Position numbers: made by a program. Positions 42,601-54,600 of a stretch of 64,000 nucleotides of DNA are shown piece after piece (positions within the stretch are counted from its first letter, which is position 1; every line of letters begins with the position of its first letter). The stretch is from the NCBI GenBank assembly GCA_963751275.1, contig CAVVTZ010000009.1, positions 608,001-672,000 of the forward strand. The letters run 5' to 3'. The stretch comes from an uncultured Gemmatimonadaceae bacterium (GTDB taxonomy: Bacteria > Gemmatimonadota > Gemmatimonadetes > Gemmatimonadales > Gemmatimonadaceae).

Positions 42601-45600
42601 TGCCCCCATTCCCGGCGGACGAGTGATCACTACCATCGTGCTCATCAAGTGCGACCCGAAGCGGATCCCGCAGGCCGCGCTCAAGCTTGCCGGCGTGGAC
42701 GGCGTGTCGGAGGTGTACTCGGTGTCGGGCGAATGGGATCTGGTCGCGATCGTGCGAGTGGCGGAGTACGACCAGATCGCGAAGGTCGTGACGGAGGAAT
42801 TCGCGGCGGTGCCGGGACTGGAGAGGACCCAGACGCTCACCGCCTTCCGCGCGTATTCCCGAAAGGATCTCGAGCAGGCGTGGGACATCGGCTCTGAATA
42901 ACAGAATGGCGCGCCTAGGGCCTAGTACCGCTGTGACTGCGCGTCTAGTAGGCGGCGTGTGGTACGGCATGGCGGGAGTTGTACAGCGACTGCGGTCGTA
43001 GGGAGTCGGTGCCACTCACGCCGAGCCGTACCACACGCTGCCTCCTAGACGCGCCCCTCGAGCGGTACTAGGCCCCACACGCGCCTGTAGGGAGTAGTTA
43101 GTGCCCCGCCGCGCCCTTCGGAGCCGGAGTTGGCGTCGGCGAGTCGGCCGTCGGCCGTTCGTCGAGGCACCAATTCGAGCGCGCCCGGTACACCTCGCTC
43201 CATTTCCCGTTCTTCCAGCCGAGCACCGTGAGGAACGTGTCGCCGCCGTAGGTCCATCCTTCGAGGATGATCTCGTCCACGCCGTCGCCGGTGAGATCAA
43301 GATGGTCGAAGTAGCGCCGGAAGGCGGCGGCGGCGAGCGGGCCGTTGATCCGGTGCGCGAACGTCGCGTGCCACGCGCCCGTGGAATCCTTGTCGGCCAC
43401 CAGCAGGATGTGCGTCGTGCGCGCGCCGGTGGAGCTCGATTTCTCCGCACTCGGATCGATGAACGAGGCGACGATCGTGTTCGACTTCGTCGCGCCCGAC
43501 GGGAAGCTCACCGCATGGAAGTCGAGCGAGTCGAGCACCTGCGGCTTGATCCCCGCGGCCACCGCCACTTCCGCCGCGACGCCGCGGGCGATCCGCGCGA
43601 TCTCGGCGGGCGCCATCGGCTGCGGCGCGCGCGAGACGCCGAGCGTCCCGTTCGAGGCGAGCATCTCGAGCGTGAAGTCGTTGCGCACGCGCAGCGCATT
43701 GGCGCGCACCGCGGCGAGCGGCGTCAGCGTGTGACAGCCCGGCAGCGTGTACAGCGGGTTGCCCGCGCGCTCCCACATGCCCTGGCGCACCTCGGCCGTG
43801 CCGCTCGTGTGGCCGTCCTGGTAGATCGTGTAGCTCTTGCCGTGGCGGAGATACTCGGCGTCGAACTTCTGCCAGTTCTCGGCGGTGAGCTGGATCGCCT
43901 TGAGCTTGCCGCCGGAGATCGTGGCCACCGGCACCATGCGCGCGTCGCCCGTCTCGCCGAAGATCTGGAAGAGGATCACCGGGTGCGACGCGAGATTCAG
44001 CTCTTCGCCCGGCGGGATGCGCGGCGGTCCCGCAGCCTGTCCGGCTTGCAGGAACGCCTTTGCTTTGTCACATCCGGTAGCGACCATTAGGATGGTCGCG
44101 ATCACAGCGAGTCGTGATTTCACGAGTGGCGCGTTTCCTTTCGGTGGAGCGGGCAACGGACCGGTGAGCGCAGAAACGAACACTGCCAGCGACTACGCCA
44201 CAAGCCATCGCGCGGCCCTGCGGCATCTCGTGCAGCGCGTGCCGGGACTGCGCGCGGCGGTGTCCGGAGGCCCGCCGCTGGAACGCATGGCCGGGGCACC
44301 CGAAGAACCGCATCTCATAGACGCCGTAAGCATCGAAGGTGCAACACTTAGGGCCCACCCGGTGCCCGGTGCGCCGGAAGCCGCGTTCGCCGCCTTCCTG
44401 GACGGGGTGCAGGAGAGCCGCGTGCTCGCCTGGCAGGGTGCGGCGCCGGTGGTGTTCGGCACCGTGGCGGCGGCCGTGCGGCGCCGCGTGGAGCGGCGGC
44501 TCAGCACGTGGGACCGGCCCGTTGTGGAACGCCGGATCTACGCGCCGCTCGCGTATCTCCCGGCGGCGGCGCTGCGCTCGGCGTTCACGGAAAACGAATT
44601 GGTGGACACCGCGCGGCCGGACTCGGGCGGATCGCCGCCGCCGCCGCATCCGACGCTGTTGCTCGAGCGCGCGAAGACCGCCGTCTCGCGCGACCGAGAG
44701 AGTGCGGAGCGCCGGCTCGCCGAGCACTGGTGCACGCGCGGAGGCGGGCCGCTGTGCATCGACGGCGGCATCACCGGCAGCGATGCGCTCGCGCGCGACG
44801 AGCAGGCGGTGGGCGTCGTGAAGAGCCATCGCACGCTGTACGCGAGCGGCGCGGCGCTGGATATCGTGCTCGGTCTGGCGCGCGGCGAGCGTACGTCGGT
44901 GTTCCGCCTCGCGCCGCGCGAGCGCAGCGCGGTGCACAGCTGGTATCTGCGGCTTCGAGATCCCGCCGACCAGCATGCGCTGTTCGGACTGGTGCGCGTG
45001 GAGGTCGCGGCCACGGCCGCCGATGCGCGGGCGGCCGCGCAGCGGGCCGACGAGGTCTCGCGCTGGGTGCTCGCCGAGGCGTCGCCGCTCGCGCTGCCCG
45101 ACGCGCAATGGGATGTCATGGCGTACCCGATCCGCGATTGCGAGGAATTCCTGCGGGCGATCGCGTGAGTAGCTTTCCGTCATGATCGACAAGCCACCGC
45201 CGCGCGCGCTGGGCCGCGTCGCCGCCACCGAGCGGAATCCCAACACGCCGCACCAGTTCCATTTCTGGACCGCGGTGGACGCCGCCGTGGGCATCGGCAC
45301 GATCGTGCGCGTGGACGGCGCGCGTCCGGTGGACGGGCAGCTGCCGCGCGTGTACGGCATGGTGGTGGAGGGTTTCGGCTACACCGACCTGCAGTCGCCG
45401 CTGCACGACGTGCTCGGCCACGATGGCGATCCGGCGAGCGCGGGCTTCGCGCCCACCGAGCGCGCGGAGGTGCGCGTGTACACGGCGGCCGTGCTGCGCC
45501 AGATCCCCGAGGAGCCGATGCAGCCGGTGCCGATGGGCGATGTGTACCTCGCCGATCATGCCGATGTCGCGATCGCGCTGCGCATGGACGGCTACCTGAA

Positions 45601-51600: not shown

Positions 51601-54600
51601 CGCTCGACGAGCTGCACCGCGAGAGCGTGCTCGATCTGCTGCGCCGCCTGCAGGACCGCTTCGAGCAGGTGATCCTGATCACGCACATCGAGAGCGTGCG
51701 CGACATGCTCGACCACGTCGTGATGGTGCGGTTCAACGAGGAGACGGGCGCGAGCGTGGTGACGCAGGAGAACGGCATCCCGCTGCCGCCGGCGGAAGGG
51801 GGAGCGGATGCGGCGGTGCCACTCGTGCTCGTGAAGGCCAGCTGATGGCGGTCGCGCACACACCGCGCTCGCCGCGGCCCACCGGTCCGTATGCCGCGCG
51901 CGCGGAGGATGCGGCGGCGCTGAACCAGGTGTTCAGCGACGCGTTCACCGAGCGCTACCGGCGCGACGGCCTCGTGGGCGTGCGCGTGCCCTTCCTGAAT
52001 CCCGCGATCTGGCGTTTCGCGATCGAGGACGCGGCGGGGGGCGCGCAGATCTGGCGCGACGAGCGTGGCGACATCGCGGCGTTCAACATCGCGCACGCGT
52101 CGGGCGCGGAGGGGTGGATGGGTCCGCTCGCGGTGCGCCCGGACCTGCAGAGCGCGGGGATCGGGAAGCTGGTGGTGACGTCGGCGAGCGATTGGCTCGT
52201 CAAGGCGGGTTGTCGCACGATCGGCCTCGAGACGATGCCGCGCACGATGGACAACATCGGATTCTACTCGTCGATGGGATATCTGCCGGGGAATCTCACG
52301 ATCACCGTGACCGTGGACGCGGGTCCGGCGGCGCGGCCGCCGGCGCTGCTGAGCCGGCTGAGTGCGCGCGCGCAGGACGACGCGGTGACCGAGTGCCTCG
52401 CGCTCACGCAGAGTCTCATTCCCGGCTGGGATTTCTCGCGCGAGATCCGGTTGACGCAGCAGCTCGGCGCTGGGCGAGACCGTGCTGTTCCGTGATGGCG
52501 ACCGGCTCGTGGGATTCGCGCTGTCACACACTGCGCCACTCGTCGAGGGACGCGCGCTCGATGAAATGCGCGTATTGAAGTTGGTGCTCGAGAGCGAGAC
52601 GCTGATCCCCGCGGCGCTCTCCGCGCTCGCGGAACTCGCGCGCCGCCATCACGCGCGCCGCGTCGCGATCCGCGCGCAGACGGATTATGTGGGCGCCTAC
52701 CGCCGAATCATCGAAGCCGGCGGGCGAGTGCGTTGGACCGATCTGCGCATGACCCTCGGCGGCTACGCGGAGCCGCGCGCCGCGAGCGGACTGATCTGGA
52801 GCAATTGGGAGATTTGACCCGATGAAATCCAGTGCCAGGGCACTGCGTTTCGTTCTACAAGACGCGAGCGAGCGTCGCCCTCGACACGGGCGTCAGGTTG
52901 GTAGTATGAGAGAAGAGCATGTCGAAACGCTCGCAGAGTTCATTTCGAAGGCTCTCGAGATCGGAAAGGCGCTGACTACGGCTGGTGGCGCGGACATGCC
53001 GGCGCGGAGTGGAAGCTTCAGCCCTCGGCGTTTCGTGGCAAGCCGAATCGCGTCAAGCAGACACATCAAGTTCTGCACTTCATTCGAAAAGCGAAGGCCC
53101 GTCAGCCGGGCCTCAGTGTCAGGGACGACCTCGGGGGGTGGCTCCAGCTTGCCAACACTACGGCCTTCCTACCCGCCTTTTAGACTGGACTCAGTCTCCA
53201 CTTATTGCACTGTGGTTTGCCCTTGAAGAGAAGCGCAATTCACCAGCGGCGATCTGGGCGCTTGATCCCTACGCCCTCAATGGGCAGCAGGATAAGAAGC
53301 AGAAGTCCATGATCTACAATATTTCAAGTGATGAGATGGAGTCACTTCTCGCGCCTGGCTTCTCGCCTGACGCCAAACAACCCAAGAAGATTCTCGCAGT
53401 CTTTGGCAATGAAAGCGACTTACGCATGATGGTTCAGCTTTCGACGTTCACAATTCACGGCGTTGAACTGCCGCTTGAAGAGTTCTCTCACGCGCAGTCC
53501 AGCCTTGCAAGAATCACCGTCGCGGCAAGAAGCCGAGACAAAATTAGAAGAGAGCTTCGCTTGCTCGGTCTTCGTCGCTCGACTCTCTTTCCAGATCTCG
53601 CCAATCTCGCGACGGATCTGTCGGAATTTGCAGATTAATCACCGCCGGGCGTCGTTGGTGCGGGCGAGGATGGTCAGAGGCACTTTTCTGCGCAGCGAAT
53701 CCGTTATGAGGCCATGCTCAAGGGGGATGGGTGACGAGAGAGCGCTTACGCTCAGTCACTCACCGGCGGCGCAGCTCGGCTTCGCCGGCGCCGCCGGCTT
53801 GATGAACTTGTCGCACCACGCCACGAACCGCACGAGATAATCTTCGCGGAAACTCGGCACGGTGAGACCGTGGTACTGTCCCGGATACACGACGAGCTCC
53901 GTCGGCACGCCCGTTGTTCGCAGCGCCTCGTACATCTGTTCGCCGCCGACCAACGGCACGTTCGCGTCGAGCTGGCCGCCTAGGAACAAGCGTTGGCGTC
54001 TTGATCTTGTCGGCGTGGAAGAATGGATACGACACCTTCATCCACGCGTCCTGCGCCTTCCACGGTGCGCCGAGTTCGAGCTCGTACTGCACGACGTACT
54101 CGTCCACGCCGAACATGGAGAGCTGGTTCGCGCTGCCGGCGCCGCTCACGGCCGCCTTGAAGCGCGTCGTCGTCGCGATCGAATAGTCGGTGAGGATGCC
54201 GCCGTAGCTCCAGCCGCCGATCGCGAGCTTGGTGGAATCGGCGATGCCGCTGCGCACGGCCTCGTCCACGGCGCCCATGAGGTCGAGCACTTCCTTGTGC
54301 CCCCAGTCGGCGAAGATCGCCTTCTGGTACGCGGCGCCGCGCCCCGAGCTGCCGCGATAGTTCACGGAGAGCACGGCGTAGCCGTTCGCGGCGAACCACT
54401 GTCGCGCGAAGTTGAAGCCGTAGTTGTCCTGGCCGTTGGGACCGCCGTGGATGTACAGGATCATCGGCGTGCGCGCGCCCGCGGCCGCGTTCAACGGCCG
54501 CATGAGGATGCTGTGCACCTCGGTGCCATCCGAACTCTTGGACGTCTGGTCGCCCACCGGCGCGAGCTGCAGCGTCGCGAAGAGGGAATCGTTCTGGCGC

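Follow-up and report, generated by a model that had tools for sequence, protein, structure and literature searches.

The window, a stretch of 64,000 nucleotides from the genome of an uncultured Gemmatimonadaceae bacterium, contains a string of genes running nurA, herA, a gene for a putative exported protein, mre11, rad50 and a GNAT acetyltransferase gene, all on the + strand. The first-pass annotation had reported a nurA-herA-mre11-rad50 string at this position, with one inserted gene between herA and mre11, and our analysis confirms that the string is genuine and that the inserted gene is present. The features are as follows:

44164..45168, + strand: nurA, RNase-H-fold NurA nuclease of the bacterial type, 334 aa
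45182..47144, + strand: herA, HAS barrel plus RecA-like ATPase, Deinococcus-type, with an extra base near 46035
47134..47976, + strand: inserted gene, ~280 aa, overlapping the herA stop, with a weak DUF6263 match
47976..48133, no strand: palindromic intergenic repeat of ~155 bp, with many copies in the genome
48177..49380, + strand: mre11/sbcD phosphoesterase, with intact DLH, GD, GNH and GHYH motifs
49377..51845, + strand: rad50/sbcC, 822 aa, with Walker A, zinc hook, signature, Walker B/D-loop and H-loop
51845..52817, + strand: GNAT acetyltransferase gene, overlapping the rad50 stop (TGATG)

The spacings along the string are 13 nt, an overlap, 200 nt that include the palindromic repeat, and a further overlap, and the four genes are presumably co-transcribed. 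The inserted gene is probably a passenger and occupies the place between herA and mre11 only in loci of family f1; at the N-terminus of its product a hydrophobic stretch resembles, as judged by eye, a signal peptide. The repeat gives 85 blastn pieces in the genome (both strands counted) and has a central hairpin of -63.9 kcal/mol; contigs of related strains carry 55 different letters in this region where the present assembly has 176. In all 17 complete loci the GNAT gene comes after rad50, and it is retained after loss of nurA and herA.

The first-pass annotation described herA as split by a frameshift. The break is present in this assembly, where the two halves are spaced by 7 nt instead of the 6 nt seen in 20 of 20 relatives, but the surplus base, near 46035, is missing in contigs from 4/4 runs of related strains. 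Similarly, mre11 and rad50 form one open reading frame of 1222 aa here, whereas they are separate genes in the 17 relatives (of 17) that have both; four same-genus relatives have one base fewer before the rad50 ATG, and their mre11 terminates on an ATGA overlap. The GNAT gene, which encodes ~323 aa in relatives, is also broken here by a +1 base. Compared with relatives there is thus one base too many in each of three places (herA, the junction of mre11 with rad50, the GNAT gene), and ftsK and a pcrA-like gene are disrupted in this assembly as well. On these grounds we take the break in herA and the joining of mre11 to rad50 as probable +1 assembly errors, and ruled against both a true herA pseudogene and a true Mre11-Rad50 fusion.

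The identity of the first gene of the string, unannotated (g2234) and proposed to encode a NurA nuclease, is confirmed by profile and fold. Its open reading frame runs to 45168 and has two candidate starts, an ATG at 44092 and a GTG at 44164, the second of which is the likely one because the resulting length and N-terminus match P0006 (92% identical). The single sequence matched no Pfam or NCBIfam model and retrieved no loci from the genome contigs. A profile of 110 homologues, 14 of which match Pfam NurA, hits the NurA of PDB 7f6d (E 3e-9) and TM1739 (PDB 1zup, E 1e-8), with no other match below E 0.05. The predicted model (pLDDT 95.8) has NurA structures in its top three rows, namely 1zup (Z 19.3, rmsd 3.6, 249 aligned), 7f6d (Z 18.9, rmsd 4.1, 268 aligned) and 2ygk (Z 15.0, rmsd 3.5, 209 aligned), while the best row besides NurA and TdpAB reaches Z 8.8. 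The Asp codons of motifs I and II lie at 44401 and 44761. Both DG motifs had been called invariant. Across the 110 sequences G48, D167 and G168 do not vary and D47 is present in at least 90%; all four residues are invariant in 13 more diverse sequences. Motif III of archaeal NurA (LxxAHxxxA, following PMC13748450) is absent from this protein and its homologues, whose C-terminal helix reads YxIRDCExYLRA; a Glu is conserved there, but His is lacking.

HerA contains a Deinococcus-type Walker A (SGLATKT), NVKGPD, Walker B (DELN) and ERGR; the HerA motifs (the K-T of Walker A, the catalytic acidic residue, the DE of Walker B) were found in 39 of 39 members, and HAS-barrel matches, which are weak, in 8 of the 39. 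Against PDB the only match is 7f6d HerA, full-length (E 1.9e-47), and the HerA profile scores E 1e-171 with Deinococcus HerA and E 9e-4 with Thermococcus HerA. An intact orthologue matched nothing in NCBIfam at E 1e-5, and the C-terminal half scores 20 bits with the archaeal equivalog (NF040937, HerA_Thermprot), whose cut-off is 800. The set had been termed archaeal-type, which goes too far: the same four families stand in one string, but HerA and NurA, the latter with its nearest structures in Thermotoga and Deinococcus, belong to a Deinococcus/Thermotoga bacterial subfamily. Mre11 and Rad50, the sole such pair found in this genome, carry the marks of their families (phosphoesterase motifs, ABC-ATPase motifs, coiled coil and CxxC hook), those of Rad50 being Walker A GPNGSGKT, zinc hook CPTC, signature SGGE, Walker B/D-loop LDEIFGSLD and the H-loop. 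Their best structure scores are to Methanocaldococcus and Pyrococcus proteins and then to Thermotoga, and they fall below the cut-offs of archaeal and SbcCD models alike. As far as can be judged from sequence, the motifs of all four proteins are intact. A complex prediction for HerA and Mre11, using intact proteins from a relative, scored 0.00 and carries no weight either way.

The gene order was said to be kept across Gemmatimonadales, and this is borne out. Of 20 loci fetched from relatives (a set that leaves out three strong nurA matches near contig ends), 17 show the whole run nurA-herA-[x]-mre11-rad50; the others have an 8.6-kb insert before mre11, a truncated mre11 with no rad50, or an end inside herA. 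Further loci of the order show the four-gene string in 3 of 3 cases, plus one with a 5-kb insert. The position of the cluster is fixed across the order, and families f1 and f2 separate in the HerA tree, as expected under vertical descent.

The four-gene string is not peculiar to this group, similar strings being common in other bacteria. Among 19 genomes of family f7, 14 have a different NurA, located in 13 of these 14 in a full four-gene cluster, and all four genes stand together at 64 of 80 loci, most of them actinobacterial. These herA-mre11-rad50-nurA clusters of Actinomycetota (Acidimicrobiia, Micromonosporaceae, Egicoccus) and Longimicrobiales contain the same four genes and the same HerA subfamily (~30% identity) but have a Sulfolobus-like order, unlike this locus, and no GNAT gene was seen beside the f7 clusters. 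In the literature that we searched, this cluster is described neither for Gemmatimonadota nor for Actinomycetota. According to a 2026 review (PMC13748450), bacterial nurA is not stably syntenic with herA, mre11 and rad50. The contrast with that statement, drawn by the first-pass annotation, is genuine, but a bacterial four-gene layout has been in print since 2017, for Oceanithermus (PMC5448004). In Oceanithermus profundus, hepA(herA) is followed by sbcD (mre11) and sbcC (rad50), an arrangement likened to archaeal repair architecture and taken as local recruitment within one genus, whereas here it is order-wide, with a rad50-coupled GNAT gene and a variable inserted gene.

The archaeal herA-mre11-rad50-nurA operon (Sulfolobales, Thermococcales; PMC2288612 and PMC13748450) unites the same four families in one string but differs in gene order, and the gemmatimonad NurA and HerA depart from its proteins in the missing motif III His and in a bacterial subfamily far under archaeal cut-offs. 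With NurA-HerA of Deinococcus radiodurans (PDB 7f6d, 7wrw, 7wrx; PMC9960219), whose host lacks RecBCD and uses RecJ/RecFOR, the pair shares the NurA fold, the Walker A variant SGxATKT, Walker B and the position of the HAS-barrel loop. It differs in its linkage to mre11-rad50, in a host group where RecQ is nearly absent, in ~90 extra C-terminal HerA residues and in acidic docking residues that align only in part. Thermotoga maritima TM1739, the top structural match, aligns at both DG motifs at 17% identity and is little characterised according to PMC9960219.

Within the order, nurA is missing in 26 of 114 genomes and herA in 12. Four same-genus relatives show a clean nurA-herA deletion of ~2.9 kb, which in three of them has left an 84-bp nurA remnant. 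All 20 order genomes tested for mre11 (19 picked for having no nurA and one for having no herA) retain it, and since the usual upstream genes stand directly before mre11 in 16 of the 20, these are deletions and not assembly gaps. Overlooked divergent genes were ruled out, as the NurA profile run without filters found no NurA in 15 herA-positive, NurA-negative loci. NurA, or NurA together with HerA, has been lost many times, often where no AddAB or RecBCD was found.

A new observation is that HerA outlasts at least five of these NurA losses, keeping its place next to mre11-rad50, with its motor intact and its NurA-docking loop eroding. All motor motifs are kept in the 13 NurA-less copies examined, and the identity of the ATPase core to family f1 is 0.77 with NurA (n=7) and 0.76 without (n=12). 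For the loop aligned with the one on which NurA docks in Deinococcus (D78/E80/D81; PMC9960219) the corresponding values are 0.53 and 0.25, and its core [DE]-[GA]-x-P, read from the alignment, occurs in 21/22 NurA-linked but 1/13 NurA-less HerAs. The decay of this loop once nurA is lost lends indirect support to a putative physical partnership between NurA and HerA here, while the preserved motor motifs point to a NurA-independent role for HerA. Chromosome segregation, with HerA as a DNA pump replacing FtsK, would be one such role and was proposed for archaea by Iyer et al. (cited in PMC2288612 and PMC4663267). We rejected it upon finding an FtsK gene in this genome, and with herA missing from 12 genomes of the order and from the four same-genus relatives, we regard it as highly improbable.

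AddAB and RecBCD are scarce in the order, as the first-pass annotation had maintained: AddB and RecC are both missing from 90 of 114 genomes, whereas outside the order AddB-profile matches occur in 42 of 46 genomes. PF12705 alone over-counts AddAB (35 of 111 f1 and f2 genomes, compared with 17 by AddB profile), and the counts therefore rest on the AddB profile and RecC. RecC, earlier put at zero, is present in 6 of 33 family genomes, three with NurA and three without. In the genome under study (83% complete) neither AddB nor RecC was found; its sole PF12705 match is a short stand-alone PD-(D/E)xK gene, which ruled it out as AddA or AddB, and the AddA profile detects only two UvrD/PcrA genes, which lack a nuclease domain. 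Of the 114 genomes of the order, 113 have RecJ; 32 chosen genomes without AddB and RecC have RecO in 32 cases and Ku in 21, and RecQ was found in one genome of 32.

The claim that the operon stands in place of AddAB/RecBCD is borne out in part. AddB or RecC is rarer with NurA (14/88) than without it (10/26; Fisher p 0.026, uncorrected for kinship, the genomes not being independent), NurA and HerA are both present in 87/114 genomes, and RecQ is missing in 31/32, all of which speaks for a reading in which the order resects double-strand breaks mainly with these four proteins, and in which they functionally replaced AddAB/RecBCD and permitted their loss. Strict substitution does not hold, however, given the 14 NurA-positive genomes that keep AddB or RecC and the 16 of 26 NurA-negative ones with neither, among them the near-closed G064 (5 contigs), G160 (6) and G063 (10). 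The four same-genus relatives lost nurA-herA, and AddB/RecC were found in none of five same-genus genomes (63-89% complete). Further, the trend within family f1 alone is not significant (p 0.18), AddB-profile matches occur in 19/19 f7 genomes, and an AdnAB/AddAB-like gene pair accompanies the four-gene cluster in 5/5 actinobacterial genomes tested. The statement that class members without this NurA have AddAB overlooked f7, where the second NurA occurs together with AddB. Taken together, we think it unlikely that these proteins are the main resection machine. Nor are they an essential or sole route as in Sulfolobus, where NurA-HerA is described as essential (PMC4351679), for the pair is often deleted in the gemmatimonad order.

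Given how widespread such strings are in other bacteria and how often the NurA-HerA half is lost, we favour, as reasonably probable, a vertically inherited housekeeping cluster whose core is stable and whose module is optional; on this view the cell does not need it as a replacement for AddAB/RecBCD. We also counted for this reading that in Thermus addAB, recJ/recQ and nurA/hepA are each reported as dispensable individually (PMC13140390). The greater frequency of AddB/RecC where NurA is missing counts against it and fits partial substitution, and the rarity of RecQ leaves the RecJ route without its usual helicase, so that HerA may weigh more than the word optional implies.

In the mechanism that we infer for the four proteins, in their activities as in their cooperation, the core would be Mre11-Rad50, the only SbcCD-like complex of the cell, which, going by its family, would bind and clean blocked or hairpin DNA ends. 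The module would work as in the Deinococcus complex: a HerA hexamer would load on a double-stranded end and pump the DNA through a NurA dimer docked on the acidic loop of the HAS barrel, and NurA would degrade the 5' strand, leaving a 3' tail. RecFOR, of which RecO is present, would then load RecA. Other routes for ends would run alongside, namely RecJ assisted by a UvrD/PcrA-type helicase, and end joining that depends on Ku, and since AddAB and RecBCD are missing in most of the order, NurA-HerA would be one of several.

Deletion of nurA or herA in Deinococcus and Thermus results in modest or improved damage resistance (PMC9960219), which leaves a pro-repair role unsettled even there. These mutants, the frequent loss of the pair, which fits an accessory role, and the view of the 2026 review (PMC13748450) that bacterial NurA-HerA chiefly degrades foreign DNA are in line with a NurA-HerA that mainly degrades incoming DNA at its free double-stranded ends or holds recombination in check, adjoining mre11-rad50 since both handle ends and not to promote repair. 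Against this, the cluster lies at its fixed position among housekeeping genes with genome-average G+C (~0.70) and tracks family-level taxonomy, and no defence genes were seen next to it, making this alternative quite improbable beside the core-and-module reading.

A more far-reaching idea, which we put forward tentatively and as a doubtful one, is that HerA is the main end-processing motor of Gemmatimonadales, an order mostly without RecBCD, AddAB and RecQ, and works with Mre11-Rad50, perhaps also RecJ, whether or not NurA is present. This would be a nuclease-free HerA-Mre11-Rad50 machine, possibly regulated by the rad50-coupled acetyltransferase; the literature that we searched describes no such machine in which HerA acts without NurA. 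With about four fifths of the sampled genomes of the order lacking AddAB and RecBCD, and with RecQ rare, how broken ends are resected in these bacteria becomes a testable question, and the natural series of NurA-plus, NurA-less and NurA-HerA-less relatives provides material for studying the function of HerA without its nuclease.

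The gene string nurA-herA-mre11-rad50 that the first-pass annotation had proposed is real and its names are correct, according to profile, structure, motif and gene-order evidence. In the source assembly (3.1 Mb, 83% complete) it lies within the window (contig C9, 608001-672000) as follows, in window coordinates:

44164-45168 (likely), + strand, nurA
45182-47144, + strand, herA
47134-47976, + strand, inserted gene for a putatively exported protein (~280 codons)
48177 (start), + strand, mre11
49377-51845, + strand, rad50
51845-52817, + strand, GNAT acetyltransferase gene

Homologues with a named source come from Gemmatimonadaceae. 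The G+C of the cluster (~0.70) equals that of the remainder of the window. Just 3' of it, an FRG-domain gene (52985-53638) within a stretch of lower G+C (0.63) is possibly a recent insert. A REP- or MITE-like palindromic intergenic repeat of ~155 bp occupies 47976-48133 and is missing from the same site in related-strain contigs; other copies lie near 42910-43085 and 33818-34006, and dozens occur genome-wide at 70-90% identity. The GNAT gene is coupled to rad50 in all complete Gemmatimonadales loci examined and persists after nurA-herA loss, and none was seen adjoining the clusters of f7, a family outside this order; that it modifies Rad50 or Mre11 is a guess.

No family model matched the single NurA sequence, and Pfam NurA was matched by 14 of 110 homologues. 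An alignment of these 110 matches Deinococcus NurA 7f6d (E 3e-9) and Thermotoga TM1739 1zup (E 1e-8). The predicted NurA structure (pLDDT 95.8) is closest to 1zup (Z 19.3), 7f6d (Z 18.9) and Sulfolobus 2ygk (Z 15.0), followed by TdpAB (Z 12.7) and Thermococcus NurA (Z 9.7), and Foldseek ranks the top matches in identical order. Both DG motifs are conserved in the homologue alignments; the histidine of archaeal NurA motif III is not. An intact HerA orthologue had a single PDB match, Deinococcus HerA (E 1.9e-47). Since a HerA profile is far closer to Deinococcus HerA (E 1e-171) than to Thermococcus HerA (E 9e-4), and the NF040937 match put forward earlier scores 20 bits where the cut-off is 800, NurA-HerA belongs to the bacterial subfamily and the description 'archaeal-type' does not suit the pair. 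Mre11 and Rad50 score best with Methanocaldococcus and Pyrococcus structures, Thermotoga coming next, and both fall below every curated cut-off; every catalytic motif is present in both, and theirs is the sole such pair detected in the source genome.

Three frame anomalies in the cluster, in herA, at mre11-rad50 and in the GNAT gene, are probably long-read errors, judging from relatives and from contigs of related strains rather than of this strain. The gap between the herA halves is 7 nt here and 6 nt in 20/20 relatives, and the base at 46035 is missing from related-strain contigs in 4/4 sequencing runs. The gap in the GNAT gene is one base above the in-frame length found in 17/17 relatives. 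Similarly, mre11 and rad50 form one frame of 1222 aa here and separate genes in 17/17 relatives; four same-genus genomes have one base fewer before the rad50 start, and three related-strain contigs spanning the junction are one base shorter, at an unplaced position. Further genes appear frameshifted, among them thymidine kinase and an S9 peptidase (judged by eye), ftsK and a pcrA-like gene; the sites are 38451-39107, the 52482 region and 53760-55835 in the window, and C8:95187-95814 and C11:374843-375616 on other contigs. Gene breaks in this assembly are therefore suspect.

Of the 20 loci fetched, which come from two families (f1 and f2), 17 show the full gene order. We sampled 160 genomes of the phylum (>=90% complete), 114 in the order and 46 outside. 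NurA occurs in 88 of the 114 and HerA in 102: 87 have both, 15 HerA alone, one NurA alone and 11 neither. In the sole genome with NurA and without HerA (G132, locus L265), nurA is retained and 4.4 kb of other DNA, lacking herA, precedes mre11. All 20 order genomes tested for mre11 (19 picked for missing nurA, one for missing herA) have it, with the usual upstream genes directly 5' in 16. Three genomes are unpublished, G012 and G082 (both NurA- and HerA-positive) among the 114 and G121 among the 46; G012 also counts in the 20 fetched loci and in the 22 NurA-linked HerAs used below, and our conclusions are independent of all three. In a HerA tree (quick method, weak forks collapsed) the two families separate and NurA-less copies take at least five distinct positions. 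Among five same-genus genomes, nurA-herA is cleanly deleted in four, and a contig end interrupts the locus in the other; three of the four have ~87% nucleotide identity. In these three (L232, L233 and L234), an 84-bp remnant of the 5' part of nurA (window 44286-44369) lies directly before the inserted gene, the trace of a recent, clean deletion.

In Deinococcus HerA, residues D78, E80 and D81 are required for NurA binding, according to passages of PMC9960219. When this loop was aligned, with 13 of the 15 NurA-less copies included, a [DE]-[GA]-x-P core was present in 21/22 NurA-linked and 1/13 NurA-less HerAs, and the region was often deleted in the latter. In the loop, f2 HerAs that have NurA show 0.53 identity to f1 and NurA-less ones 0.25, the ATPase core standing at 0.77 and 0.76, and all motor motifs are kept in 13/13 NurA-less HerAs. 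At the sequence level, erosion of the loop with persistence of core and motor motifs supports a true NurA-HerA contact where both occur and NurA-independent use of HerA where NurA was lost; alternatively, NurA-less herA may be recently orphaned and decaying slowly. For independent use, Mre11 is a candidate partner, because Sulfolobus Mre11 is reported as a HerA binder (parts of PMC2288612 and PMC4663267).

The four-gene cluster is conserved in the order but not confined to it, and the bacterial cluster family is wider than first thought. In f7 a distant NurA occurs in 14/19 genomes, and the set is complete at 13 of those 14 loci, arranged either as herA-mre11-rad50-nurA or as nurA-herA-mre11-rad50; all 19 match the AddB profile. 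Two distinct four-gene clusters occur in this family (L085-L094, L097, L118-L121, L143), and two loci titled Longimicrobiales nest within one f7 HerA clade. The position of one f7 cluster's HerA among actinobacterial sequences in an unrooted tree suggests transfer. A HerA-alignment scan matched at least 592 stretches; among the best 80, chiefly from Acidimicrobiia and Micromonosporaceae, 64 have the four genes in Sulfolobus order, the other 16 being mainly short contigs. Because the ranking followed similarity to an f7 HerA, this set does not represent bacteria at large. An AdnAB/AddAB-like pair is also present in 5/5 actinobacterial genomes with the cluster.

The scarcity of AddAB and RecBCD in the order, the main pattern noted at first pass, was borne out. 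An AddB profile made from 12 sequences of the phylum matched 18/114 order genomes vs 42/46 others (three of the 42 in the nuclease domain only). RecC was found in six order genomes, all f1 (G092, G115, G116, G158, G162 and G178, four sharing one genus), probably as acquired RecBCD, judged from RecC; 90/114 have neither protein. HerA, AddB and RecC were not found in 5/5 same-genus genomes (63-89% complete), one of which gave a short match to PF12705, the AddAB-type nuclease family. A short, apparently frameshifted Cas4-like PD-(D/E)xK nuclease gene lies outside the window (C9:486218-487280), flanked by lipid A acyltransferase-like and aminotransferase-like genes (named by eye).

Allowing that kin are not independent, AddB or RecC occurs in 14/88 NurA-positive vs 10/26 NurA-negative order genomes (p 0.026; f1 p 0.18, f2 p 0.035). 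The claim that the operon stands 'in place of AddAB/RecBCD' therefore holds as a trend but not as a rule, as 16/26 NurA-negative genomes have neither marker and four same-genus genomes deleted nurA-herA with no AddB or RecC found. A role as principal substitute, which the trend would favour and these exceptions speak against, is unlikely. RecJ is present in 113/114 order genomes, and 32 genomes chosen for missing AddB and RecC have RecO (32/32), often Ku (21/32) and rarely RecQ (1/32), so other end-processing routes exist there; with RecQ missing, HerA or UvrD/PcrA could act as the helicase. In family f6, no RecJ was found in 4/7 genomes (G083, G106, G124, G174), which show several AddB-like matches; three of the four also gave no Mre11-profile match.

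Reading all activities by analogy with Deinococcus and archaeal systems onto the identities, motifs, gene order and counts observed, we lean towards a resection role. Mre11-Rad50 would clean DNA ends, a HerA ring would drive DNA through a NurA dimer that strips the 5' strand, and RecFOR would load RecA; the NurA-HerA module would be one route among several and can be lost. That NurA-HerA degrades incoming DNA or restrains recombination seems quite improbable, and an FtsK-like pump is still harder to credit for HerA, as the source genome has FtsK.

Bacterial clusters may already appear in Iyer et al. (2004), and published surveys of RecBCD/AddAB across phyla may have recorded their scarcity in this phylum. 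The operon is solidly supported but has precedent. In Oceanithermus profundus, sbcD and sbcC lie downstream of hepA, called an archaea-like architecture in parts of PMC5448004. Passages of PMC13748450 do state, as the first-pass annotation had cited, that bacterial nurA has no stable synteny; other papers term the bacterial NurA-HerA role controversial (PMC9960219) and Thermus resection routes redundant (PMC13140390, PMC9751324). Docking-loop decay with the HerA motor kept is the single new result of this analysis. Both this putatively NurA-independent HerA and the general lack, across the order, of AddAB, RecBCD and RecQ are worth following.
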